Source of the DNA: an uncultured Actinomycetota bacterium
GTDB lineage: Bacteria > Actinomycetota > UBA4738 > HRBIN12
NCBI GenBank assembly: GCA_963839395.1
Contig: CAWIUW010000015.1
Location: 333,104-397,103, forward strand
DNA length: 64,000 nucleotides
Reading direction: 5' to 3'
Shown: positions 3,624 to 63,413 of the stretch, one piece after another
Numbering within the stretch: position 1 is the first letter of the stretch
Layout: each line of letters starts with the position of its first letter
Notes under the pieces: model-generated
What the model saw: only the letters and a program-made list of their open reading frames with translations
The model's database searches: none
Told to the model about the DNA's origin: nothing
Translations under genes and position numbers: made by a program

Positions 3624-4427
3624 GTGCCCTTCGCGCGGAACGATCTGGACGCTGCTCGCGTGTACTTCGAGGACGATGGCGGAGATGGCGTCCCCGTCGC
3701 GATCCTGGGCGGCTTCCTCGACCCGGTCGACCTCGTCCGAGGCGCTCCGATCGCCAGGTCGTTGCAGGAGCTCCCCGATGAATTCCGCCTGATCTACATC
3801 GATCATCGAGGGCACGGTCGAAGCGACAAGCCCCACGCGGATCGGGCTTACGTGATGCCCATACGGGTAGGAGATGTGGTGGCCGTCCTCGACGACCTCG
3901 GCATCGAGCGATCGCACTTCATCGGCATCTCCTGGGGCGCGAGACTTTGCTTCGGGATCGCGGAACATGCGCCCGAGCGGATCCACTCCCTGGTGACGAT
4001 CGGGCAGCAGCCCTACGCGATCGACCCGGACGGCCCGCTCGCCAGCATCGTCTCGGAGGCGTTTGCCGCCTCGAGGGAGCAGGGGATCGGAGCGCTCGTC
4101 GAGGCGTTCGAGGCGATCGCCGGACGGTATCCGGACGCCGTCCGGGAGACCTACCTCGCGTGCGACGCGGCTGCGATGCGGGCCGCGTGGCGCTCCGCGA
4201 TGGATGAGGGAGCGGTGAGCGAAGACCTCGGTTCATGGGACGTCCGCTGTCTGATCTGCGTCGGCCAGGACGACCGTGACTTCTTCGAGCAGGCGAAGCG
4301 GGCGGCGGAGGAGATCCGGAACGCGGAGTTCCTTCCGATCGGAGACACCGACCATCTGGGTGTGGACACGGCTGCGATCGATCCCGTGCTCCCCGCGGTC
4401 CTTCGCACCCTGCGCGAGACGAACTGA
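3624..4427 (+). CDS. alpha/beta-hydrolase fold protein
   Basis: 267-aa ORF with a GISWGA nucleophile-elbow-like motif and hydrolase-fold composition. Confidence 0.75.
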   Translation: MPFARNDLDAARVYFEDDGGDGVPVAILGGFLDPVDLVRGAPIARSLQELPDEFRLIYIDHRGHGRSDKPHADRAYVMPIRVGDVVAVLDDLGIERSHFIGISWGARLCFGIAEHAPERIHSLVTIGQQPYAIDPDGPLASIVSEAFAASREQGIGALVEAFEAIAGRYPDAVRETYLACDAAAMRAAWRSAMDEGAVSEDLGSWDVRCLICVGQDDRDFFEQAKRAAEEIRNAEFLPIGDTDHLGVDTAAIDPVLPAVLRTLRETN

Positions 4428-4431
4428 CTCG

Positions 4432-4516
4432 TGCGAGAGGGGGGATTCGAACCCCCACGCCCTTTCGGGCACCGGCTCCTAAGGCCGGCGCGTCTGCCGG
4501 GTTCCGCCACTCTCGC
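4432..4516 (-). tRNA. tRNA-Leu (anticodon UAG), type II with long variable arm
   Basis: Cloverleaf folded by hand. Acceptor GCGAGAG/CTCTCGC, anticodon loop CTTAGGA, 15-nt variable arm, T-arm GGGGGTTCGAATCCCCC. No encoded CCA. Confidence 0.85.
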
Positions 4517-4566
4517 GCCAACCAAGGGTAGACCCTCGTGGACGGCGAAGCCCGCCGCGCGACATC

Positions 4567-5352
4567 ATGAACGCGATGCCACGCCGCCTCCTGCTCTTCG
4601 CCGTGACGGCCACCCTGGCCGCATGTGGGGGAGGAGCGACGGCGCCGGCGGACGTGACCCCACCGGCGGTCGCGACACCACGCTCCCGGCCGAGGCCGCC
4701 CGCCGATTTCCAGGCGTCCAGGCTGCTCGCGCGCGGCGGGACGCTCGTCGCCCTCGCGCGCGAGTCGGTACTCGGGATCCATGCGGCGCCGGGGACGGAA
4801 CGTCCGTACATGGGCCTCGACGCCGCGAATCCATGGGGGCAGCCCCTCCGGCTCCTCGTGGTCCGCGGCGCGAACGACGAGGACGGCGACGTTTGGCTCC
4901 GCATCCAGCTCCCGATCTGGCCGAACGGCCAGGCGGGCTGGGTCGCCGCCTCCGACGTGCGACTCGCCGAGGCCGACGAACGCGTCGTCGTCGATCTCTC
5001 CGAGCGGAGGCTCGTGAGGCTCCGCGAGGGCAAACCGGTCGCCCGCGTCGAGGTCGCCATCGGTTCGGCCGCGACGCCCACTCCGCCCGGGCGCTACTTC
5101 GTATGGGCGAAGGTCCGGACCGACCGCCCCTCCGGACCGTACGGGAGCTTCATCCTCGGGCTCTCCGGGTTCTCCGAAGAGATCGAGCCGTGGACGGAGT
5201 GGCCAGGTCAGCCGCGACTCGCGATCCACGGGACCGACGACCCGGCCGATGCGGGACACGCCGTGAGCAAAGGGTGCGTGCGTGTCCTGAACTCACTGCT
5301 CGGAGGGCTTCGCGACGTGCCGATGGGGACTCCCGTCCTCATCCAGCCGTAG
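4567..5352 (+). CDS. L,D-transpeptidase (YkuD domain) lipoprotein
   Basis: Signal peptide with lipobox (TLAACGGG). C-terminal HGT..S.GCVR catalytic motif. Confidence 0.8.
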   Translation: MNAMPRRLLLFAVTATLAACGGGATAPADVTPPAVATPRSRPRPPADFQASRLLARGGTLVALARESVLGIHAAPGTERPYMGLDAANPWGQPLRLLVVRGANDEDGDVWLRIQLPIWPNGQAGWVAASDVRLAEADERVVVDLSERRLVRLREGKPVARVEVAIGSAATPTPPGRYFVWAKVRTDRPSGPYGSFILGLSGFSEEIEPWTEWPGQPRLAIHGTDDPADAGHAVSKGCVRVLNSLLGGLRDVPMGTPVLIQP

Positions 5353-10807: not shown

Positions 10808-11488
10808 TCACCTCACGGTGGGTGCTCGTTGGGTCAGGTATGCCTCGAGACGATCCGCCAGCTCCTTCGGACGGCTGAGAGCGGGGGTGTGTCCGCCGTC
10901 GATCTCGTCCGGCGTGATGCCCAAGCGCTCCTGGGCGACACGGCGGAGGAAGGAGGCCGGGAACACGCGGTCGTCTCGACAGAGCAGGACCCGTACGGGC
11001 ACCTCAGGCCACGCCTCGAGCGGGAGTGGCTCGTGCATGCGAGCCTCGGACTGCGCCCGTCCCCTCCTCAGCGCCTCGGACGCCAATCCCGGCGGCACAT
11101 CCTGATAGAACCACGCGATCTCGTCGTCGTAGCGATCGTGGACTTCCTCTTCGTACCTCGTGTTCCTCCAGTAGTCCGCGGGTGCCTCTCCGGGAGCGGG
11201 GATCATCGGTGCGACCAAGACGAGCAGGTCCACCGCGACGCGATCGCAGACGAGCGGAGCGGTGAAGCCACCCATCGACTGCGCGACCACGACCAGATCC
11301 GTCCGGATGCCGATCGAGTCGATCACGGCGTCGGCATACTCGGGCATCCCGGCCGCGTCGTCTTCACACGGAAGATCTGGGGCGACGGTGTCGTGGCCTC
11401 GCGCGCGCAGCTCGGCCTCCACCAGGTGCCAATACCAACCGACATCGCCGGCGCCGTGTATCAGGACGAACGTGGCCATCGTCGTCAT
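10808..11488 (-). CDS. alpha/beta-hydrolase fold protein
   Basis: MATFVLIHGAGDVGWYW..VVVAQSMGG nucleophile elbow. Confidence 0.75.
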   Translation of the reverse strand: MTTMATFVLIHGAGDVGWYWHLVEAELRARGHDTVAPDLPCEDDAAGMPEYADAVIDSIGIRTDLVVVAQSMGGFTAPLVCDRVAVDLLVLVAPMIPAPGEAPADYWRNTRYEEEVHDRYDDEIAWFYQDVPPGLASEALRRGRAQSEARMHEPLPLEAWPEVPVRVLLCRDDRVFPASFLRRVAQERLGITPDEIDGGHTPALSRPKELADRLEAYLTQRAPTVR

Positions 11489-11501
11489 GCGACCTCTCGA
11501 G

Positions 11502-11546
11502 TGGGCCCTCGGGGGACTCGAACCCCGAACCTCCGGATCAAGAGTC
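11502..11546 (-). repeat. degenerate copy of the 3' half of tRNA-Lys (anticodon arm through acceptor end), about 41/45 identity to the intact gene 650 bp away
   Basis: gtgggccctcgggggactcgaaccccgaacctccggatcaagagtcc versus tgggcccccggggactcgaaccccgaacctgcggattaagagtcc at 12159-12203. Confidence 0.6.
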
Positions 11547-11712
11547 CCAGAAACGGCGTTCGGAACAGTCCTGGTCTATCTGGGTCTCTTCCATTCCAGT
11601 AGGTCAGGATGTCCGTCGGCCGACCACCAACCCGGAACGTCCGGGAGCGGTTGTACCTTCACCGATGGACGGGCCGCTGCCGGTCTGGTGACGCCGAGTC
11701 TCGGAGGACGCG

Positions 11713-12126
11713 ATGAAGATGAAGGGACAACTGAACGTGAAGACCCCGGCCGAATACATCGCCGCCGTGGACGACAAGCGCCGGTCCGACATAGCGGCCC
11801 TCGATGCGCTGATCCGCAAGCACGCGCCGAAGCTCGAGCCGGTCATCATGGGCGGCATGCTCGGCTACGGGCCATTCCACTACCGCTACGCGAGCGGCCG
11901 CGAGGGCGACGCCTGCAAGCTCGCGATCGCCAGCAACGCCTCGTACATCTCGCTGTACTGCTTCGCCTCCGACGCGAAGGGCTACGTCGCCGAGCGGTAC
12001 GTCGATCGGCTCCCGAAGGCCGGCATCGGCAAGACCTGCGTGATGATCAAGAAGCTCGCGGACCTCGACGAGAAGGCGCTCGTGGCGCTCATCAAGGAGA
12101 CCGCGAAGATGGGCCTCGTCGCCTGA
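11713..12126 (+). CDS. DUF1801 (YdhG-like) domain protein
   Basis: 137 aa with good codon bias. N-terminal KTPAEYIAAVDDKRRSDIAALDALIRKHAPK is typical of the family. Confidence 0.65.
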   Translation: MKMKGQLNVKTPAEYIAAVDDKRRSDIAALDALIRKHAPKLEPVIMGGMLGYGPFHYRYASGREGDACKLAIASNASYISLYCFASDAKGYVAERYVDRLPKAGIGKTCVMIKKLADLDEKALVALIKETAKMGLVA

Positions 12127-12155
12127 GCCCGAGCGACGTCGGAGCGGCGGTCATG

Positions 12156-12232
12156 TGGTGGGCCCCCGGGGACTCGAACCCCGAACCTGCGGATTAAGAG
12201 TCCGTTGCTCTGCCGGATTGAGCTAGAGGCCC
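12156..12232 (-). tRNA. tRNA-Lys (anticodon CUU), with encoded CCA
   Basis: GGGCCTCTAGCTCAATCCGGCAGAGCAACGGACTCTTAATCCGCAGGTTCGGGGTTCGAGTCCCCGGGGGCCCACCA folded by hand. Confidence 0.9.
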
Positions 12233-12368
12233 GCGGCAGTCTAGCAACCGTCGGGCGTCACCGGGCTCGCGAGGCCATGTTTGCTCGCATCCCAGAATGG
12301 GGATATCTGGCGCGACGGAACGCTGATGCCGCCATGGAGGCGGCCGCATAGCGAAGGAGGCGTTCACC

Positions 12369-12542
12369 GTGAGCATGACGCCAGAGCATCACCACCACGA
12401 TGAGGCAACCCCGGTCCGCGACCCCGAGGGCGGAAGCGGCCTCGTGGGATACGCGGCGATCAAGTACATCGCGATCGTCGCGATCGTGATCGCGATCCTG
12501 GTCTTCCTGGGGTGGTACCTGATCCCCGCGTTGACCGACTGA
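12369..12542 (+). CDS. small (57 aa) His-rich single-pass membrane protein, hypothetical
   Basis: GAAGGAGG RBS 7 nt upstream of GTG. VSMTPEHHHHDEATPVRDPEGGSGLVGYAAIKYIAIVAIVIAILVFLGWYLIPALTD. Followed by a strong hairpin. Below the 60-aa ORF-track cutoff. Confidence 0.4.
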   Translation: MSMTPEHHHHDEATPVRDPEGGSGLVGYAAIKYIAIVAIVIAILVFLGWYLIPALTD

Positions 12543-12576
12543 CCGAAGCCGGCCGACCGGAACGACGAGAACGTGA

Positions 12577-12613
12577 GAGGCGGCCGCGGCCCCGAAGGGG
12601 CCGCGGCCGCCTC
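12577..12613. terminator. perfect 17-bp GC-rich stem with GAA loop; candidate intrinsic terminator (possibly bidirectional)
   Basis: GAGGCGGCCGCGGCCCC-GAA-GGGGCCGCGGCCGCCTC, followed by GTCTCTC. Lies between the small ORF (+) and tRNA-His (-). Confidence 0.5.
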
Positions 12614-12622
12614 GTCTCTCAG

Positions 12623-12697
12623 GGTGACCGAGGGGACTTGAACCCCCAGCCTCCAGGACCACAACCTGGCGCTCTAACCAGTTGAGCTACGGCCACC
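12623..12697 (-). tRNA. tRNA-His (anticodon GUG) with extra 5' G(-1)
   Basis: GGTGGCCGTAGCTCAACTGGTTAGAGCGCCAGGTTGTGGTCCTGGAGGCTGGGGGTTCAAGTCCCCTCGGTCACC. Confidence 0.9.
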
Positions 12698-12763
12698 ACG
12701 TGCTGCACCAAGCGTACCGGATGCGACCCGGCGGGTTGCCTCGGAAAGCCTGGTCGGGCATCA

Positions 12764-12779
12764 TTGAACGGCCGTTCAA
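12764..12779. promoter_or_regulatory. 16-bp perfect palindrome TTGAACGGCCGTTCAA 20 bp upstream of the aminotransferase start; candidate operator shared with 62158-62173
   Basis: The identical 14-bp core TGAACGGCCGTTCA recurs upstream of the saccharopine dehydrogenase-like gene at 62158. Confidence 0.4.
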
Positions 12780-12799
12780 ACAAGCGAGCCATCCCGGGG

Positions 12800-14185
12800 G
12801 TGGACGACCTGGCAACCAAGGAGACGATCGACTTCGACCTCGAGCTGGTCGACCGCTTGATCGCCGAGGAAGAAGCGTCGCTCGAGCCGAAGCACCGGGC
12901 CTCGATCGAGTACCGCGACGTGGCCGCGCGACATGTCGCCGGCGGGGTCGCGTCCTCGTGGCAGGCCTCGCCCCCACATGCGGTCTTCATCGACAGGGGA
13001 GCGGGCAGTCACATCTGGGACCTCGACGGGAACGAATACGTCGACTATCACCTCGGGTACGGCGCCATGATCGTCGGACACGCGCACCCCAAGGTCGTCG
13101 AGGCGATCGAGAAACGGGCCCGCCTCGGGACGCACTTCGCCCAGCCGACCGCTCAACTCCACGAGATCGGCGAGAACGTCGCGGAACGGTTCGGTCTGCC
13201 GCTCTGGCGGTTCTGCAACTCCGGCACGGAGGCGACACTCGAGGCGGTCCGGTTGATGCGGGCGAACACCGGCAGGGACATGATCGTGAAGATCGAAGGG
13301 ACCTACCACGGTCACCATGACTCGCTGATGTTCTCCGTCGCGCCGGACCCGGAGCTGATCGGCCCGCGCGAGCATCCCGTCACGGTGCCGCAGGCGATGG
13401 GGATCCCGCAGGCTTTCGCCGATCTGGTGCGTGTCGTGCCGTTCAACGACCTGGCCGAGGCCGAGCGGGCGTTCGCGGAGAACGACGGTCGTGTCGCCGG
13501 GATGATCGTGGAGCCGGCGATGATGAACTGCGGCGTCGTGCTGCCGCAGCCCGGCTACCTGGAGGGACTGCGCGAGCTCTGTCACCGACACGGGGCCTAC
13601 CTCGCCTTCGATGAGGTGAAGACCGGGGGGACGATCGCGTGGGGTGGCGCCGTGGAGGCGTTCGGCGTCCAGCCCGACATCGTCACGCTCGCGAAGGCGT
13701 TCGGCGGCGGTGTCCCGTGCGGGGCGATCGGCGCGACCGAGGAGCTCTTCGGGCCGGTCCTTCGAGGCGACCACGACATCGCCGGGACGTTCAACGGGAA
13801 CCCGCTCACGATGGCCGCGGCGAAGGCGACCTTGCTCGAGGTCCTCACACCCGATGCCTACGCGCGTCTGCACGAGGTCGACCGGGCGCTGAAGGACGGC
13901 CTCCGACCGATCATCGACCGGTATCGGCTCCCCGCGTACGTGACGGGGATCGGCGCGAAGGGCTCGGTCACGTACTCCCCGACGGAGGTCCGCGAATACC
14001 GGGACACGATCGGGATCGACGAGCGGATCAGCTACCTGGCGTGGCTGATCCAGCAGAACCGAGGCGTGTTCAAGGCGCCGTGGGCGAAGCAGGAGACCTG
14101 GACGCTCTCGGTCGCCCACTCCGACGACGATGCCCAGCGCTACGTCGACAACTTCGAGGAGTTCGCGGCCGCCGTCGCGAGCTGA
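12800..14185 (+). CDS. class III (PLP-dependent) aminotransferase, GSA-aminomutase/omega-aminotransferase-like, paralog 1
   Basis: HLGYGAMIVGHAHPKVVEAI, NSGTEATLEAVRLMR, DEVKTGG..(PLP lysine region), FNGNPLTMAAA. The start could be GTG 12800 or TTG 12764. Confidence 0.85.
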   Translation: MDDLATKETIDFDLELVDRLIAEEEASLEPKHRASIEYRDVAARHVAGGVASSWQASPPHAVFIDRGAGSHIWDLDGNEYVDYHLGYGAMIVGHAHPKVVEAIEKRARLGTHFAQPTAQLHEIGENVAERFGLPLWRFCNSGTEATLEAVRLMRANTGRDMIVKIEGTYHGHHDSLMFSVAPDPELIGPREHPVTVPQAMGIPQAFADLVRVVPFNDLAEAERAFAENDGRVAGMIVEPAMMNCGVVLPQPGYLEGLRELCHRHGAYLAFDEVKTGGTIAWGGAVEAFGVQPDIVTLAKAFGGGVPCGAIGATEELFGPVLRGDHDIAGTFNGNPLTMAAAKATLLEVLTPDAYARLHEVDRALKDGLRPIIDRYRLPAYVTGIGAKGSVTYSPTEVREYRDTIGIDERISYLAWLIQQNRGVFKAPWAKQETWTLSVAHSDDDAQRYVDNFEEFAAAVAS

Positions 14186-14198
14186 GAAGCTTCGCTCC

Positions 14199-15101
14199 GT
14201 GGGCGAGCGCTGGCTGCAGGTCGAACTGGAGGACGGCCGCTCGCTCGAGGCCGTGGTCCAGGGCGCCTCTGAGGGGACGCTCCTCATCTTCCATCACGGG
14301 AGTCCCGGCTCCGCTCAGCCGTTCGCTCCTTTCGACGAGGCGGCCGCCGAACGGGGTATCACGATCGCGTTCCCGTCTCGCGCCGGCTTCGGCGGATCGA
14401 GCAGGCAGGAGGGAAGGACGGTGGCGAGCGCGGCGGCGGACGCCGCCGCGCTCGCCGACCACCTCGGCCACGAGCGGTTCCTCACGGCCGGTTGGTCGGG
14501 CGGCGGCCCGCACGCTCTCGCTTGCGCGGCACTGCTCCCGGACCGCGTGCAGGCCGCCGCGACCATCGCCGGCGTCGCTCCGTACGACGCCGAGGGGCTG
14601 GACTGGACCGCCGGGATGGGCGAGGACAACCAGGTCGAGTACCCGACCGCGGCCCGTGACCCCGACGAGCTGCTCCGGTGGATGGAACCGCACGTAGAGG
14701 CGATGGCGACGATCGAGGCGGGGCAGATCGTCGCCGAGTGGCGGTCGCTGTTGTCGGGCGTCGATGTCGAACAGGTGACCGGCCAGTTCGGCGACAACTT
14801 CGCCGCCTCTTTGCGCTCGGCTTTCCGCAACGGGCCGTGGGGCTGGTACGACGACGACCTGGCATTCGTCCGCGATTGGGGCTTCGATGTGTCGAAGATC
14901 GGGATTCCCGTCTCGATCTGGCAGGGACGGCAGGACCTCATGGTGCCGATCACCCACGGCGAATGGCTGGCCGCGCATATCCCGGGTGCACGAGCCCACC
15001 TCCGTCCCGAGCACGGCCACCTGTCGCTCGGCATCGGCGCGTTCGGGGAGGTCCTCGACGAGCTCCTCCTCGCCGCAGGTCCGTCTACCATCGGGGCGTG
15101 A
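14199..15101 (+). CDS. alpha/beta-hydrolase fold protein
   Basis: GWSGGG nucleophile elbow. The GTG start at 14199 is preferred over the overlapping 14130. Confidence 0.7.
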   Translation: MGERWLQVELEDGRSLEAVVQGASEGTLLIFHHGSPGSAQPFAPFDEAAAERGITIAFPSRAGFGGSSRQEGRTVASAAADAAALADHLGHERFLTAGWSGGGPHALACAALLPDRVQAAATIAGVAPYDAEGLDWTAGMGEDNQVEYPTAARDPDELLRWMEPHVEAMATIEAGQIVAEWRSLLSGVDVEQVTGQFGDNFAASLRSAFRNGPWGWYDDDLAFVRDWGFDVSKIGIPVSIWQGRQDLMVPITHGEWLAAHIPGARAHLRPEHGHLSLGIGAFGEVLDELLLAAGPSTIGA

Positions 15102-15577
15102 GTCCGTCGCAGCCCGAGGTCCGCAAGAAGGCCGAGCACCTCGACGCACGGCTCCGGCCGTTCCTCTCCCGCATCGGCGTGCCGGCACTCAGGATCTCCA
15201 TCGGGATCGTGTTCCTCTGGTTCGGGCTCCTGAAGATCTTCGACGTCTCGCCCGTCTCGGAGCTCGTCGCGAAGACGATCTACTGGTTCGACCCGGACGT
15301 CGTCGTCCCGGCGCTAGGCGTGTTCGAGGTCTTCGTCGGCGTCTGCCTGATCGCGGGCCGGCTGATGCGGATCGTGCTGCCCCTCCTCGTCCTGCAGATG
15401 GCGGGCACGTTCCTCGTGCTGGTGATGCACCCGGACGTCGCGTTCCGCGACGGCAACCCGTTGCTGCTCACGGTCGAGGGCGAGTTCGTGATCAAGAACC
15501 TCGTGCTGCTCTCCGCCGCCCTCGTGATCGGCTCACGTCTCGCGCCGATCGGTGAGGGCGGCACGGGCAGCGCCTGA
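15098..15577 (+). CDS. DUF417 (YkgB/RclC-like) membrane protein
   Basis: ALRISIGIVFLWFGLLKIF..TVEGEFVIKNLVLLSAALVIG is typical of DUF417. The GTG overlaps the upstream stop (GTGA). Confidence 0.7.
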   Translation: MSPSQPEVRKKAEHLDARLRPFLSRIGVPALRISIGIVFLWFGLLKIFDVSPVSELVAKTIYWFDPDVVVPALGVFEVFVGVCLIAGRLMRIVLPLLVLQMAGTFLVLVMHPDVAFRDGNPLLLTVEGEFVIKNLVLLSAALVIGSRLAPIGEGGTGSA

Positions 15578-15605
15578 GTCGGCGGACGTCGTAGGCTCCA
15601 CATCC

Positions 15606-16988
15606 ATGGATACCGCCAGGACCGTCGACGTCGACCTCGACTGGGTCGAGGAGCTGACGAAGCGGGAGACCGAGGCGCTCGATCGCAAGCACGCCAGGTC
15701 GCTCTCGTACCGAGAGGAAGCGAAGCGGTTCCTTCCCGGCGGCGTGTCCTCCTCGTGGCAGTCGTGGCCGCCGCATCCGATCTACGTGCGGCGCGGTGAG
15801 GGTTCGCACGTGTGGGACATCGACGGCAACGAGTACGTCGACCTCCACAACGGCTACGGCGTGATGGTCATGGGGCACGCGCATCCCAAGGTGGTCGAGG
15901 CCGTCCAGCGGCGCGTCGCGGAAGGAACGCACTTCGCGCAGCCGACGGAGGAGGCGCTCCCGGTCGCGGAGAACCTCGCCGAGCGGTATCGCCTCCCGCA
16001 ATGGCGCTTCGGCAACTCCGGCACCGAGGCGACGCTCGATGCCTGCCGGATCTCCCGCGCGCTGACCGGTCGGTCGAGGATCCTGAAGATCGAGGGCACC
16101 TACCACGGTCATCACGACTCGCTGATGGTGAGCGTGTTCCCGTCGGAGGAGAAGGCCGGCCCGCGCGAGCACCCCGTCGCCGTTCCCCAGACGCTGGGCC
16201 TCCCGAAGGAGTTCGTCGATCTCGTGGTCAACGTGCCGTTCAACGATCTCGAGGCGGCGAAGGAGGCGTTCGCCGAGCACGCGGGGGAGTTCGCCTGCAT
16301 GATCGTGGAGCCCGCGATGACCAACTGCGGGCTGGTGCTACCGGATCCCGGCTACCTCGCCGGACTGAAGGACCTCTGTCGGACCGACGGGGCCCTGTTC
16401 GTGTTCGATGAGGTGAAGACGGGGTTCACGCTCGCGTGGGGCGGCGCCGTCGAGGCGTTCGGCGTCGTGCCAGACCTGATCTGCTTGGCGAAGGCGCTCG
16501 GGGCCGGTCTTCCCTGTGGGGCGATCGGTGGCACCGACGAGGCGATGGGCATGGTGATCAGCGGCGAGCTCGATCAGCAGGGAACGTTCAACGGCAACCC
16601 GCTCACGATGGCCGCCGCGAGGGCAAACCTTCTCGAGGTGCTCACGCCGGAGGCGTACGCGCGGTTCGACGAGCTGAACGCGATCCTCGCGCGCTCCGAG
16701 CAGGTCTGCCGTGACCAGGGACTCCCGGCGAACGCGAAGGTGCTCGGCGCGAAGGGCTCGGTCGAGTTCCGGCGCGAGCCGATCCACGAGTACCGGGACC
16801 TCTGGGACATCGACGACCGGGTGCCGCAGCTCGCGTGGCTCTGGCAGCTGAACCGTGGTGTGTTCAAGTCCCCCGGCTCGAAGTGGGAGAGCTGGACGAC
16901 GTCGATCGTCCATTCCGACGACGACGTGCAGCGCTACGTCGACAACCTCGAGGAGTTCGCCGCCACGGTCACCAACCCGGCTGCCTGA
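15606..16988 (+). CDS. class III aminotransferase, paralog 2 (about 65% identical to the 12800 gene by eye)
   Basis: The same motif set as paralog 1 (GHAHPKVVEAV, NSGTEATLDA, DEVKTGF, FNGNPLTMAAA). Confidence 0.85.
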   Translation: MDTARTVDVDLDWVEELTKRETEALDRKHARSLSYREEAKRFLPGGVSSSWQSWPPHPIYVRRGEGSHVWDIDGNEYVDLHNGYGVMVMGHAHPKVVEAVQRRVAEGTHFAQPTEEALPVAENLAERYRLPQWRFGNSGTEATLDACRISRALTGRSRILKIEGTYHGHHDSLMVSVFPSEEKAGPREHPVAVPQTLGLPKEFVDLVVNVPFNDLEAAKEAFAEHAGEFACMIVEPAMTNCGLVLPDPGYLAGLKDLCRTDGALFVFDEVKTGFTLAWGGAVEAFGVVPDLICLAKALGAGLPCGAIGGTDEAMGMVISGELDQQGTFNGNPLTMAAARANLLEVLTPEAYARFDELNAILARSEQVCRDQGLPANAKVLGAKGSVEFRREPIHEYRDLWDIDDRVPQLAWLWQLNRGVFKSPGSKWESWTTSIVHSDDDVQRYVDNLEEFAATVTNPAA

Positions 16989-17076
16989 TCCGACCGAGTC
17001 GAAACGATCGAAGGTCCGTGACGCTCGAGGGGCGGCCCTTCTGGGCCGCCCCTCGTGTCCGTTCGATGCCGCCGAT

Positions 17077-19918
17077 CTAGGGGAGGGCCACCGACCAGGC
17101 ACCCCGGCCGTGCGTGGCCGCGTAGAGCACCCGGCCCGCGTCCGACGTGTCGATCGTGAGGCCGTATGTGGCGACCGGCGGAAGCCCGGCGGCTGCCTCG
17201 ACCCACACGTTGCTGCCGTCCTCGAGTCGCAGGACGCTGAAGTCCGTCGACACGTAGACGTCACCCGTCTGGTCGTCGAACGCCACGTCGGTGATCGGCT
17301 GGTCGCCGATGTTGGCACTGATGTCCGTCCAGGTCGCGTTGCCCGTGCCCGGATGGAACGTCACCTCGAACACATGACCCGGCTGGCCGGGTGTGTACGC
17401 CTCGTACCCGGAGAACGAGATGAACGCGTGGTTCGAGTTCGTCGGGTCGATGGAGATCCCGCTCACGAACCGCTCGGGCTGTGCGGCCGAATCGATCCTC
17501 CGGTAGCTCACCTGCTGCCGGGGCGCGTTCGCGTTCTTCGAGACGAACACGCGACCGACCCGGGTCCCGGCCCAGAGCGTGCCGGTGTCGCCGCCGGACC
17601 GCTCGACCGCCACGACGTAGTTCCCGAGCTTGTCGCGGCCGTAGAACGTCGACGTCAGGTTCCCGCTCGTGCCCGAACCGATCGGCTTCCAGTTCCCGCA
17701 GGCGTGCTGGAAGGTGCCCGTGTACTCGTTGCAGGTCTCCTCGAGGAAGGCCTGCTCGCCACCGTTGTTCGAGGTGCGCCAGACGCTCTCCATCCCGGTG
17801 AACATCGCACCGCCCACGACCGGATCGGTGATGAGAGGCACGTAGAACGATCGCTGCTCGTTGCTCTTCTGGAGCGGGTCCCCGATCCAGTTCCAGCTGC
17901 CGGGAGCCCCGTCGTCGAAGCTCACGTCGGGGGTCGCGTCGAAGTAGGTGTGGACGCGGATCGAGGTGTCCTCGGCTCCGTAGCCCGACTGGCCGCCGTC
18001 TCCGTCGATCGTCTCCAACCATTCGGGGCTGCCGGAGAAGAGCCAGGTGCCGTTGTCCTGCGTGCCACCCATCAGGTCGTTGGTGGGGTCCTCCGGGTTC
18101 ACGGACAGGCTCTGGAACTGGATCGTGGCGAGCCCGTCGTTCAGCGTGGTCAGCAGCTGGGGCACCGCGCTGAGCCAGTTCTCGCAGTCCGTCAGGTCCG
18201 CACCCTCGATCGGCCTCGAGGCGCACTCGCCAGTGTCGTCCACGTAGGTCCCGTTCGTGCGGATCACGCCGCCGTCTGACCCGACGATCGCGATGTTGGG
18301 GTTGGACGCGAAGACGATCGCGTGCTGGTCGGGGTGCATGCCGAGCGGCGGGTTCTGCGCGTCGTTCGTCATGTCGGTGAACGAGACGCCCGCATCGGTC
18401 GAGCGCATCACCGCGCGCCCGTTCGACCGGCCGTTGCCACCGAACACCGGCAGCTCGTCGTAGTTCATCGCGCCGCCGATCCAGACCGTGTTGGGTTGCC
18501 CCGGCGGCGACTCCACGAACATGTCGTACCCGCACTGGAAATGGCAGAAGAAGTACGAGCCGAAGCCGTCGGTGCCGTTCGCCGGGTTGGACAGCAGCGT
18601 CCAGCCACCGTTCGTGCCCCCCGTGAGCAGGTCACCGGCGGGCACGTTGGCGTCGTCGGTGCGCCAGAGGACCGAGTAGCCCAGGTCGTCCGACGAGTCG
18701 CCCAAGTAGATGCGCGTGTCGGACCCCAGGTCGACCAGGTCGAACTCCGTCCGGTCACCGAACGTGTCGGCCGGGTGGAACGTCTGGAAGACCTGGCGGA
18801 ATTGCGTCGTCCCTTCGTTCGCGGGTGACCGACGCCACAGCCCGTAGCCGAACAACGCGACGTAGACCGTCTCCGGGTCGTTCGGGTCGAGCAGGATCCT
18901 GTTCACGCCACCCTGGAACCAGTCCACGCCTCCGGAAGCGGGTGCCGGGTTCGGGTCACGCGAGAAGACGAGGTCGAACGTCGCGCCGCCGTCGGTCGTC
19001 TCGTACAGACCGAGGGTGGGCGCGTCCGGCGGGGTCCTCCGACCGCCGTTGGCCGAGGAGGAGCCGTGACGCGCCACGGCAGTGCCGATGAAGTAGTGGT
19101 CGGGGTCGGTCGGGTCGATCGCGATCGAACCGATCGAGCGGTCCCTCGCGATCGGCACGCTCGCCGGCACCAGGGTCCACGGGCCCCCGTCGGTCGACGT
19201 GAAGAGGCCGACACCGGCCTCCGAGTCGCCCGAGCCGTTGGGTTCGCCCGTTCCCGCGAAGATCCTGTTCGGGTCGTTCGGGTCGACCGCGAGGGAGCCG
19301 ATCGAGTTCGACGTGATCCCCGCGTCGAGCGGTTGCCAGGCGGGCTCGGCTGCGAGCGCGTCCGGCGCGTGCCACACGCCTCCGCCCGCCGCACCGACCC
19401 AGATCTCGCAGTCGCCCGGCACGCACGTCGGTGAGATCGCCATCGATGTCACGCGACCGGAGTTCTGTGTCGCTCGATCCGTGTAGGTCGCGATCGCAGG
19501 AACCGTCGGCGTCACGGGGCCGAGCTCTTGCCATCCGGCAACGAGCGGGGCGCTCAGACCGGTGCGTGCCGACGGGATCGCCGCGGCGGCGGCGATGGCC
19601 TTCTTGACTTGCTTGAAGCGGATCGTTGCCCGGGGGATCGCGCGGTTCTCGTAGGCCTCAGCGGCCGGACCCCCGAAGCGCTCGGCCTCGCCGCTCTCGC
19701 CGATCTTCTCGCGGACCACGAGGATCGGAAGTTGCCGGTCGCCGCGCAGCGCGATCTCGCGGAGACTCGCCTCCTCCTCGCCCTCGCCTCTCGCGCTCAC
19801 CCGCTCGGTTCTGGAACTGGCTGGGTGTGCTCGTGCTCCATATCACCACGGCGAGCAGCGTGAGCGCGGCGAGAACGGTGATGGCGGTCCGGACGTGGGT
19901 GCGGAGGCGCTTCGACAT
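17077..19918 (-). CDS. secreted BNR/Asp-box repeat protein (sialidase/glycosyl-hydrolase-like beta-propeller); signal peptide in a different frame from the body (apparent indel near 19810-19830)
   Basis: Repeated S-x-D-x-G-x-(T/S)-(W/F) motifs (FTSTDGGPWT, YETTDGGATF, MRSTDAGVSF). The N-terminal MSKRLRTHVRTAITVLAALTLLAVVIW signal peptide ORF (19918 downward) joins the 907-aa body only after a 1-nt shift. Confidence 0.7.
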
Positions 19919-62157: not shown

Positions 62158-62173
62158 CCTGAACGGCCGTTCA
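62158..62173. promoter_or_regulatory. 16-bp perfect palindrome CTGAACGGCCGTTCAG 22 bp upstream of the start codon; second copy of the 12764 motif
   Basis: Identical 14-bp core TGAACGGCCGTTCA. An extra half-site CTGAACG lies 10 bp upstream. Confidence 0.4.
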
Positions 62174-62195
62174 GGGCGTCGGTACACTCGGCGAC

Positions 62196-63413
62196 ATGAG
62201 GATCCTGGTCGTGGGCTCGGGTGGGGTGGGATCGGCGTTCGCGCCGATCGCGGCTCGACGTGAGTTCTACGAGCACATCGTCTTCGCCGACTACGACGAA
62301 GGCCGTGCCCATCGCGTCGTCGACCGCTACGGCGACGGCCGCTTCTCGGCCGCGCGCGTGGACGCGAGCGATGCCGCCGCCGTCGCCGAGCTGGCTCGCT
62401 CCACCGGGTCCGACACGATCGTGAACGCCGTCGACCCGCGTTTCGTGATGCCGATCTTCGAGGGAGCGTTCGATGCCGGCGCCACCTATCTCGACATGGC
62501 GATGTCGCTCTCGAAGCCGCATCCCGAGAAGCCGGAAGAACTGCCCGGGGTCAAGCTGGGTGACGAGCAGTTCGCCGCGGCCGGTCGATGGGAGGAGCGG
62601 GGTCTCCTTGCCCTGGTCGGTGTCGGGGTCGAGCCAGGCATGTCGGACGTGTTCGCGCGATACGCCGCCGACGAGCTGTTCGACACGATCGACGAGATCG
62701 GTGTCCGAGACGGAGCGAACCTCGAGGTGGAGGGGTACGAGTTCGCGCCGAGCTTCTCGATCTGGACCACGATCGAGGAGTGCCTGAACCCCCCGGTGAT
62801 CTGGGAGAAGGACCGGGGCTGGTTCACGACCCCGTCCTTCAGCGAGCCCGAGGTCTTCACGTTCCCCGAGGGGATCGGTCCGATCGAATGCGTGAACGTC
62901 GAGCACGAGGAGGTGTTGCTCGTCCCTCGCTGGATCGATTGTCGTCGCGTGACCTTCAAGTACGGGCTGGGCGACGAGTTCATCGACGTGCTGAAGACCC
63001 TCCGCAAGCTCGGGCTGGACCGCACCGAGAGGCTGCGCGTGGACGGGGTGGAAGTGTCGCCCCGGGACGTCGTCGCAGCCGCTCTGCCCGACCCGATGAC
63101 CCTGGGGGACAAGATGACCGGCAGGACCTGCGCGGGGACGTGGGTGACCGGGACGGGCGCGGACGGCGGGCAGCGGGAGGTCTACCTCTACCACGTGGTC
63201 GACAACGAAGAGACCTGGTCGCGGGACGGCGCGCAGGCGGTGGTCTGGCAGACCGCCCTCAACCCGCTGATCGCGCTGGAGCTGCTCGCGACCGGCGTCT
63301 GGTCGGGCGCGGGCGTCCTGGGCCCGGAGGCCTTCGAGGCTCGCCCCTTCCTGGACCTGCTCGGTGACTACGGGTCACCCTGGGGCATCGAGGAGCGTTC
63401 GGTGAGCCGATAG
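62196..63413 (+). CDS. saccharopine dehydrogenase-like NAD(P)-binding oxidoreductase
   Basis: MRILVVGSGGVGSAF Rossmann motif. 405 aa. Confidence 0.8.
   Translation: MRILVVGSGGVGSAFAPIAARREFYEHIVFADYDEGRAHRVVDRYGDGRFSAARVDASDAAAVAELARSTGSDTIVNAVDPRFVMPIFEGAFDAGATYLDMAMSLSKPHPEKPEELPGVKLGDEQFAAAGRWEERGLLALVGVGVEPGMSDVFARYAADELFDTIDEIGVRDGANLEVEGYEFAPSFSIWTTIEECLNPPVIWEKDRGWFTTPSFSEPEVFTFPEGIGPIECVNVEHEEVLLVPRWIDCRRVTFKYGLGDEFIDVLKTLRKLGLDRTERLRVDGVEVSPRDVVAAALPDPMTLGDKMTGRTCAGTWVTGTGADGGQREVYLYHVVDNEETWSRDGAQAVVWQTALNPLIALELLATGVWSGAGVLGPEAFEARPFLDLLGDYGSPWGIEERSVSR

Follow-up and report, generated by a model that had tools for sequence, protein, structure and literature searches.

The stretch of DNA considered in this study, hereafter called the window, comprises 64,000 nucleotides from an uncultured Actinomycetota bacterium (assembly GCA_963839395.1, contig CAWIUW010000015.1, positions 333,104 to 397,103) and is high in GC (about 68%). 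Between a minus-strand tRNA-His gene (12622-12696) and a convergent gene for a protein of 907 amino acids (17077-19800) lies a cluster of four plus-strand genes, namely those of two paralogous class-III aminotransferases, here called AT1 and AT2, which enclose the genes of a serine hydrolase and a small membrane protein (Table 1). A first-pass annotation of the window had pointed out these four co-directional genes with their overlapping or abutting junctions, and all four open reading frames (ORFs) and the junctions between them are confirmed here. The stop codon of AT1 (14183-14185) is followed after a 13-nt gap by the GTG of the hydrolase gene (14199), whose own stop codon TGA (15099-15101) shares the 4-nt overlap GTGA with the GTG of the membrane protein gene (15098), and a 28-nt gap separates the end of the latter (15577) from the ATG of AT2 (15606).

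Table 1. Features of the aminotransferase cluster and of the second palindrome site, in window coordinates
Feature	Position	Strand	Remarks
AT1	12800-14185	+	GSAM-like class-III PLP enzyme, 461 aa; Aminotran_3 214 bits
Alpha/beta-fold serine hydrolase	14199-15101	+	300 aa, GTG start; Abhydrolase_1 72 bits
DoxX/DUF417-clan membrane protein	15098-15577	+	159 aa, GTG start; DoxX 34.2, DUF417 29.1 bits
AT2	15606-16988	+	GSAM-like class-III PLP enzyme, 460 aa, ATG start; Aminotran_3 208 bits
Perfect 16-bp palindrome TTGAACGGCCGTTCAA	12764-12779		Operator-like, 20 nt upstream of the AT1 GTG
GC-rich hairpin, 13-bp arms	17026-17055		Between the convergent AT2 and 907-aa genes
Second palindrome copy CTGAACGGCCGTTCAG	62159-62174		21 nt upstream of the ATG of the 62196-63413 gene
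Saccharopine-dehydrogenase-family gene	62196-63413	+	Resembles carboxy(nor)spermidine dehydrogenase; Sacchrp_dh_NADP and Sacchrp_dh_C
GSAM, glutamate-1-semialdehyde aminomutase; PLP, pyridoxal 5'-phosphate; aa, amino acids.

The GC content of the four genes is 0.87-0.95 at third codon positions against 0.39-0.52 at second positions, which is typical of coding sequence in high-GC DNA and shows that the four ORFs are real genes; their Pfam matches (Aminotran_3, Abhydrolase_1, DoxX and DUF417) all exceed the gathering cut-offs. AT1 most likely starts at the GTG at 12800 rather than at the TTG at 12764, because the N-termini of its orthologs align from there. A scan of the window saw no terminator-like structure between the four genes, and the only match to the terminator consensus (12787-12809) is on the minus strand and overlaps the AT1 start; such scans for sigma-70 and terminator consensus sequences are uninformative in the high-GC DNA here. 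The hairpin downstream of AT2 is likely a bidirectional terminator that closes the operon, and an Rfam scan of 11400-17400 gave two tRNAs and chance-level sRNA matches only, with no riboswitch. Judged from this layout, the cluster is one compact putative transcription unit, with tRNA-His and the palindrome upstream and the terminator hairpin downstream. As a side observation, the ATG of AT2 is preceded at a distance of 12 nt by a -10-like hexamer, TAGGCT (15588-15593), and the related loci L022, L040, L044, L047 and L070 have comparable hexamers (TAGCCT, TATCCT, TAGACT) between AT1 and AT2; they may represent an internal, near-leaderless promoter of AT2. An Ala-rich stretch of the hydrolase gene (14423-14456) holds a perfect inverted repeat of 16 nt around a 2-nt loop, which probably results from the GC-rich codons of Ala.

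AT1 and AT2 are clear class-III paralogs with the same PLP motifs, as the first-pass annotation had recognized, at an identity of 60% (277/458) instead of the 65% that it had estimated by eye. Both match the fold-type I PLP family PF00202, whose cut-off is 30.5 bits, AT1 with 214 bits (positions 8-350 of the 403 in the profile) and AT2 with 208 bits (positions 9-358). To place them, the window proteins were mapped by tblastn to 80 related loci (denoted by L numbers), all of them from metagenome-assembled genomes (MAGs) of uncultured Actinomycetota, and the conservation of residues, numbered as in GSAM, was counted in the resulting AT1 clade (61 sequences) and AT2 clade (78 sequences) after alignment to the Synechococcus GSAM 2GSA and the Bacillus enzymes. 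The motifs LAKA (equivalent of K273), FDEV (D245), NSGTEA and GTFNGNP (T305), with the Schiff-base lysine, the pyridine-N aspartate and the phosphate-binding residues, show a conservation of 90% or more in either clade. The closest NCBIfam and PDB matches are GSAM, the HemL enzyme, with E-values down to 1.8e-86 and identities of 38-40% (38% between AT1 and GSAM, 40% between AT2 and the B. anthracis GSAM 3K28), and the homology to the solved GSAM structures is unambiguous. With GSAM (2GSA, 3K28, 3BS8) they have in common the fold and the class-III family, as well as K273, Asp245, Ser29, the SGTEA and YHGH motifs, Thr305 and an equivalent of Glu406, found in K-x-E-(T/S)-W-T that aligns with SQFEAGF of 2GSA and 3BS8.

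Unlike GSAM, however, both proteins fall below the cut-off of every NCBIfam HemL model: AT1 and AT2 reach 324.6 and 350.2 bits against 527.3 for the equivalog-level HemL model TIGR00713, 343 and 364 bits against 398 for PRK00062, and stay likewise below the cut-offs of PRK12389, PRK00615 and PRK06209, so that the paralogs stand outside ordinary HemL. Their N-termini are about 20 residues longer and form an extra helix; Met248 is replaced by Lys in both (FDEVKTG); and the gating loop 149-183 has a 7-residue insertion, with SV(F/A)P..(E)..GPREHP in place of KAGSGVATLG, and does not match the GSAM loop with its Gly162-Val165 lid helix. There is also a 3-residue gap at Pro30-Val31-Arg32 in every AT1, AT2 and third-copy sequence, Ser29 being retained. 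In GSAM the conserved substrate-binding residues are Ser29, Pro30, Val31, Arg32 and Glu406, and the intermediate is hydrogen-bonded to Ser29 and Arg32 (PMC7338781), while in the beta-transaminase StoTA an Arg36 at the equivalent position binds the carboxylate (PMC10589169). The substrate anchor that defines both GSAM and the beta-transaminases is thus absent from AT1 and AT2, from which we infer that they are not glutamate-1-semialdehyde aminomutases, and the label "glutamate-1-semialdehyde 2,1-aminomutase" which JGI gives to members of the family is probably an over-annotation.

The opposite view, that AT1 and AT2 are the divergent HemL of this lineage and serve tetrapyrrole synthesis as that label implies, could appeal to the best family and PDB matches, to the retained Glu406, Ser29 and PLP residues and to a slow, core-like conservation. 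Besides the failed cut-offs, the deleted tripeptide and the altered gating loop, it is opposed by the genomic setting: the AT genes, unlike hemL, are a tandem pair of paralogs under a putative operator of their own, no hem gene was found in any of the 80 neighbourhoods, and the operon is predicted to be repressor-controlled and includes a hydrolase. The misannotation of a HemL-like protein also has a precedent (PMC3149608). We consider this view very improbable. No canonical hemL was found in the approximately 2 Mb of fetched loci either, which do not amount to whole genomes, so that this absence is uninformative; the extra aminotransferases near the pair (about 30% identity) appear to be of ornithine/acetylornithine type according to sequence motifs, without a family-profile scan, and nothing in them suggests HemL.

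Another candidate role is that of beta- or omega-amino-acid transaminases of the kind of StoTA or the Mesorhizobium and Variovorax beta-Phe aminotransferases, acting on free beta- or gamma-amino acids that the hydrolase would free from beta-peptides or esters. These enzymes belong to the same class-III subgroup (E-values of 1e-46 to 1e-73) and appear among the PDB matches (6K8H, the structure of the Sphaerobacter StoTA, at 7.6e-73; the beta-Phe aminotransferases 4AO9 and 2YKU), and a Peptidase_S58 gene of DmpA type is present in the wider syntenic region. However, the P-pocket Arg36 of StoTA falls within the deleted tripeptide and has no counterpart in AT1 and AT2. Transaminases of the GSAM-like subgroup also carry a switching Arg at one set position, which is Glu in AT1 and AT2, and on balance such a role seems quite unlikely.

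As regards other known relatives, the "probable aminotransferase" 5YKR/5YKT (461 aa, PRK07046-type) has, like AT1 and AT2, an extended helical N-terminus and no Pro-Val-Arg, and its alignment is full-length from residue 4-6, with WMQQWPG set against SSWQSWPPH; it is nevertheless a weaker match than GSAM (E-values of about 1e-52 to 1e-55), and PRK07046 (cut-off 425 bits), which aligns end to end, gives 285 and 270 bits. A literature search on 5YKR, on PA5523 (a tentative identity of 5YKR that was dropped), on the hydrolase structure 9WLV discussed below and on GSAM-like enzymes found nothing usable. GntE of guanitoxin biosynthesis is a HemL-like class-III enzyme that transaminates a substrate without a free anchoring carboxylate; its model NF041362 gives 333 bits with AT1, about equal to the scores of AT1 with the HemL models, and 315 bits with AT2, against a cut-off of 525. 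Kat, a protein annotated as HemL-like that proved to be a 3-aminobutyryl-CoA transaminase and was recognized via gene context in an uncultured organism, likewise acts on a substrate that offers no free carboxylate as an anchor and sets a precedent for a HemL-annotated transaminase (PMC3149608). There is no sequence-level evidence of orthology with either (the Kat sequence itself was not aligned), and the AT locus has no lysine-fermentation or guanitoxin genes.

Turning to the related loci, the pair itself proves to be the conserved unit. An AT1 ortholog (about 74% identical) lies upstream of AT2 on the same strand in 52 of the 54 loci that are evaluable, that is, with at least 3.3 kb of DNA upstream of AT2, and in 24 of these 52 the spacer between the two is just 14-108 nt long, usually with a Shine-Dalgarno sequence. 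AT2 orthologs at 70-96% identity are present in 78 of the 80 loci, and the other two (L081, L082) hold an AT1-type copy only. Relatives of AT2 at 73-96% identity number thousands, nearly all from soil metagenomes and Actinomycetota MAGs, and no record matched AT2 in an exact sequence look-up. When clustered at 50% identity the whole AT1/AT2 family collapses to one representative, and the next clusters follow at 48%, 47% and then at most 44%, which makes the subfamily discrete; none of the neighbouring clusters has an informative name. In a neighbour-joining tree the AT1 and AT2 orthologs are reciprocally monophyletic, with third copies outside both clades, which means that the duplication is older than the radiation of the lineage, and the earlier remark that the paralogs are kept separate holds well. 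The clades share 177 invariant columns and differ in 19 discriminating ones, which include GSAM positions 28 and 37 (both in the substrate loop), 65 and 69, 159 (gating loop) and 407, as well as a Trp/Gly exchange beside the Glu406 segment. Such a pattern suggests diverged substrate specificity, not redundancy.

The same data bear on whether AT1 and AT2 form an obligate heterodimer, in which two non-equivalent sites would hard-wire the subunit asymmetry of GSAM in an aminomutase or transaminase acting on a new amino-aldehyde. The two nearly always co-occur, often almost abutting, their evolutionary rates are similar, both keep the catalytic residues and Glu406, and two discriminating positions, GSAM 129 and 133, are in the interface helix 122-139 (PMC7338781). 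On the other hand, a locus may have a single copy (L081, L082) or as many as three (L003, L024, L032, L045 and L048, representing four distinct contigs), oppositely oriented genes split AT1 from AT2 in L007, L012 and L013, and the spacers rarely overlap and in several cases hold -10-like hexamers. We also know of no heteromeric class-III aminotransferase, and regard the obligate heterodimer as unlikely.

Beyond the pair, conservation of the neighbourhood is partial. The arrangement of the window does recur, as the first-pass annotation had proposed to check; its exact four-gene order is found in L009-L011 only, with a partial copy in L015, and just the AT1/AT2 pair is broadly conserved. In L007 (7221-9285), and also in L012 and L013, two minus-strand inserts encode a secreted repeat protein and a membrane-anchored protein. 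In L001 (8065-9440), a 95%-identical relative from which the hydrolase is absent, AT1 is split into ORFs of 231 and 238 aa, owing either to a frameshift that would make it a pseudogene or to an error in the assembly of long reads. Distant relatives (42% identity) are too divergent in context for any transfer of function, and the arrangement in L086 differs; in L085 (2110-6267), where the 42%-identical relative is on a Nocardioides-like contig, two nearby class-III aminotransferases stand with a GntR/FCD regulator and a glyoxalase, so the pairing of GSAM-like aminotransferases may be more general than this lineage.

The hydrolase is well defined as a family member (Abhydrolase_1, 72.2 bits against a cut-off of 25.8). 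Its triad Ser100-Asp246-His274, with the elbow GWS100GG, is invariant in 121 homologs, and its oxyanion motif is HHG(S/T)PG, which reads HHGSPG in the window protein. It is 49.8% identical over 281 residues (E=1e-83) to PDB 9WLV, which has the same triad and the same lid motif WGWxDDDxAF. The name under which 9WLV was deposited, "pimeloyl-ACP methyl ester carboxylesterase", is a generic COG0596 label that JGI also attaches; the literature search found no paper on this structure. With the BioH model TIGR01738 the hydrolase scores 29.1 bits, far from the cut-off of 206.95, and no biotin genes are nearby. The first-pass annotation had named the membrane protein DUF417/YkgB, and the DUF417 cut-off is indeed barely passed (29.1 against 27, at profile positions 88-166 only); the DoxX match is clearer (34.2 against 23.6 bits) and places it in the DoxX clan, while the assignment to RclC/YkgB does not stand, for with the model NF040476 (cut-off 275 bits) it scores 21.6 bits along 26 residues. 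Its four hydrophobic segments, seen in the hydropathy profile, are those of the small four-helix membrane type common to DoxX/DUF417 (YkgB/RclC) proteins. Known partners of DoxX are SodA and SseA in mycobacteria and DoxA in archaea, and the present locus is without any of them.

How firmly these two genes belong to the unit can be judged from their distribution. A hydrolase of the same family (47-84% identical) lies between AT1 and AT2 in 17 of the 54 evaluable loci and anywhere in 24 of the 80; the loci that have it span the clade of at least 90% identity and several sub-clades of about 75%, and in L002/L025 it is nearby rather than between. The DoxX gene occurs at this position in the clade of at least 90% identity only (L001, L005, L007-L013, L015). 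It could accordingly be argued that there is no functional unit of four genes at all, but a conserved pair into whose spacer, a permissive gap of a syntenic backbone, hydrolase and DoxX genes have drifted. The same gap does take up the two minus-strand genes (L007/L013) and inserts of 2.5-4.9 kb (L014, L017, L019, L084), DoxX is clade-specific, and the hydrolase is missing from about 70% of the loci. Mere drift would have to explain, however, why the same hydrolase family recurs exactly between AT1 and AT2 in the close clade and in several of the more distant sub-clades, and why the junctions of the window are as tight as described above, without an internal terminator; we take it to be rather unlikely.

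The palindrome TTGAACGGCCGTTCAA stands directly after a -10-like CATCAT. A palindrome of the form (T/C)TGAA(C/T)-N4-GTTCAA is found upstream of AT1 in all 66 loci for which upstream DNA exists, strictly in 56 and with one-base variants in 10; the consensus is TTGAAC-N4-GTTCAA, usually preceded by TATCAT or CACCAT, with unconserved flanks. Elsewhere in 1.27 Mb of DNA of the lineage, sites with at most one mismatch occur only at L081:3890, where a perfect palindrome (TTGAACGACGGTTCAA, 3890-3905) precedes a GCV_T/GCV_T_C aminomethyltransferase gene (3917-5071), which in this locus with a single AT copy is just upstream of an array of AT, BHMT and DAO genes. Invariant half-sites with a free spacer are the signature of a protein-binding operator over the transcription start, which predicts a repressor. 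As the first-pass annotation had observed, the palindrome is shared; within the window its 14-mer core TGAACGGCCGTTCA recurs once, at 62160-62173. The product of the gene downstream (62196-63413) aligns full-length with carboxyspermidine dehydrogenases (PDB 4INA, 1e-53; 8DEB, a carboxyspermidine dehydrogenase, 5e-43) and scores 174.9 bits full-length against a cut-off of 800 with NF043000, being a family member and not an equivalog; this gene is putatively co-regulated with the AT operon.

The core of the palindrome, GAAC-N4-GTTC, is identical in sequence and spacing to the core of the Cheo or SOS box of Gram-positive and actinobacterial LexA, which raises the prospect of a LexA-regulated operon for damage-inducible detoxification of aldehydes or amines, not one responsive to nutrients. 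In L047 (1715-1730) a canonical-looking SOS-type palindrome TCGAACCCCCGTTCGA is found in the AT1-AT2 spacer, 25 nt before AT2, the site upstream of AT1 being degenerate there, and some relatives have repair genes (DinB, YcaQ-like) after AT2. Yet nearly all of the 66 sites are flanked by T/A, and not by the canonical C/G (CGAAC...GTTCG), these repair genes of the loci lack a palindrome box of their own, and the other targets are metabolic. A search of all loci for lexA, recA and dinB gave one truncated lexA, on an unrelated contig, and one dinB only. Regulation by LexA is in our view quite unlikely. The operators of ArgR (ARG box), Rex and LacI-type regulators were also weighed and were rejected or left open, their spacing or core bases being different.

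There are also hints of an RNA-level layer. Roughly every second long leader, for example that of L021 (8506-8583, with the distal element GGCGGTTC), L034 (8503-8569) or L052 (8518-8579), has a stretch of 8 nt, complementary to GAAC and N4, 5-8 nt ahead of the Shine-Dalgarno sequence, which hints at an alternative RNA helix. Matching changes occur on both sides of the pairing (CGCC with GGCG, CACC with GGTG), and a custom test for a distal complementary element was suggestive, not decisive; RNAalifold on 21 leaders gave the hairpin of the palindrome only, with no covariation, and did not recover the distal pairing.

Taken together, the reading that we prefer, with a chance of being right that we put at about even, is that of a repressor-controlled operon for amine or aldehyde transamination, with two diverged, catalytically competent GSAM-like PLP enzymes, an accessory hydrolase and a recently added DoxX protein. 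Each aminotransferase would be an active homodimeric PLP/PMP (pyridoxamine phosphate) enzyme that transfers an amino group to or from a carbonyl, and its substrate would not be anchored via the carboxylate that GSAM and the beta-transaminases bind; amino-aldehydes, diamines, polyamines, and amines borne by an ester, amide or thioester are the candidates. AT1 and AT2 would differ in specificity, because several of the clade-discriminating residues lie in substrate-binding segments. The serine hydrolase would be a recurrent accessory, probably unmasking or releasing the substrate by cleavage of an ester or amide, and the DoxX protein a recent, clade-specific addition. A putative repressor on TTGAAC-N4-GTTCAA over the transcription start would control the operon, and the same site would control the carboxyspermidine-dehydrogenase-like gene here and the GcvT-family aminomethyltransferase in one relative. 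The co-regulated dehydrogenase, the site in L081 and the frequent BHMT-DAO neighbours point, loosely, to the metabolism of polyamines, amino-aldehydes or one-carbon amines.

Several facts weigh against this reading. The minus-strand genes that part AT1 from DoxX-AT2 in L007, L012 and L013 mean that the pair is not always one operon. Part of the conservation is plain synteny, since the pair belongs to a conserved backbone which runs from YkuD via tRNA-Lys, tRNA-His, AT1, the hydrolase where present and AT2, followed by optional genes (an AI-2E/PerM-like permease, a YcaQ-like glycosylase, a BHMT-like methyltransferase with a DAO oxidase), to purE, purK, PhzF and the S58 peptidase. The slow pace at which the aminotransferases evolve equals that of PurE (about 75% identity) and is more housekeeping-like than catabolic, and no characterised enzyme is closer to them than about 40% identity. 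The retention of Glu406, which in GSAM is thought to repel alpha-keto acids, is GSAM-like and would speak for an aminomutase that works intramolecularly rather than for a classical transaminase. As to regulation, the second palindrome is kept only in the 92%-identical ortholog L088 and is absent in the 71 more distant of the 72 orthologs of the dehydrogenase gene checked, and the palindrome may have a role at the RNA level. The first-pass proposal that one transamination follows another, with a hydrolase acting in between, finds no support in anything tested. In most relatives the aminotransferases abut without a hydrolase, and the copies number from one to three. Its broader suggestion of a dedicated, regulated module has fared better: the paralogs are not ordinary HemL proteins and the arrangement is not unique to this genome.

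A further-reaching version would make the cluster a core pathway of uncultured soil Actinomycetota, in which AT1 and AT2, as an asymmetric heterodimer or as sequential enzymes, would carry out a 1,2-amino shift of the GSAM type, or a transamination, and the substrate, of amino-aldehyde or polyamine type, would be without the glutamate carboxylate, and in which a new regulator or a 5'-leader RNA switch at TTGAAC-N4-GTTCAA would also tie in the carboxyspermidine-dehydrogenase-like and GcvT-like genes. We deem it improbable.

Regarding the flanks of the cluster, a perfect hairpin with 17-nt arms (12577-12613) has a small ORF on one side and the 3' end of tRNA-His on the other. As an operator of the AT operon it was rejected, for it abuts the tRNA, is restricted to the close clade and has a stem that varies yet pairs; it is likely a bidirectional terminator. 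The small ORF (12369-12542, 57 aa), between tRNA-Lys and tRNA-His, has a His-rich N-terminus, one hydrophobic helix and no Pfam match; it is kept at 80-93% identity in the close clade only, and in distant relatives the tRNAs are closer and no homolog was detected. The minus-strand 907-aa ORF, an insertion that parts AT2 from purE, has no Pfam match; its orthologs (90% identity) are in the same place in L007, L008 and L013, the gene is absent from other relatives, and in relatives without it purE follows 27-60 nt after AT2. A BHMT-like homocysteine S-methyltransferase with a DAO-family oxidase or a dimethylglycine-dehydrogenase-like protein often stands after AT2, forming a glycine-betaine demethylation module (L002/L025 11471-13633, L003 12166-21288, L081, L082 and L078), to which a PadR regulator, an ABC transporter and an amidase are sometimes added.

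What appears to be new here is a discrete class-III aminotransferase subfamily with distinctive active-site changes, together with a notably conserved putative operator, the palindrome being among the best-conserved non-coding elements of the region. Public pipelines name thousands of these proteins "glutamate-1-semialdehyde aminomutase"; on the sequence evidence the HemL label is almost certainly misapplied to an entire, abundant protein subfamily of soil actinobacteria, and this mislabelling affects the calls of heme pathways in metabolic reconstructions of MAGs. For now the subfamily joins the other uncharacterised ones among the class-III aminotransferases. GSAM-like enzymes that take substrates without a carboxylate are sought as chiral-amine biocatalysts, and the conserved palindrome offers a handle for defining the regulon and hence for a guess at the substrate. 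Slow evolution, near-universality in the lineage and the conserved element together indicate that the pair is probably important, and regulated, in the amine or aldehyde metabolism of these bacteria.

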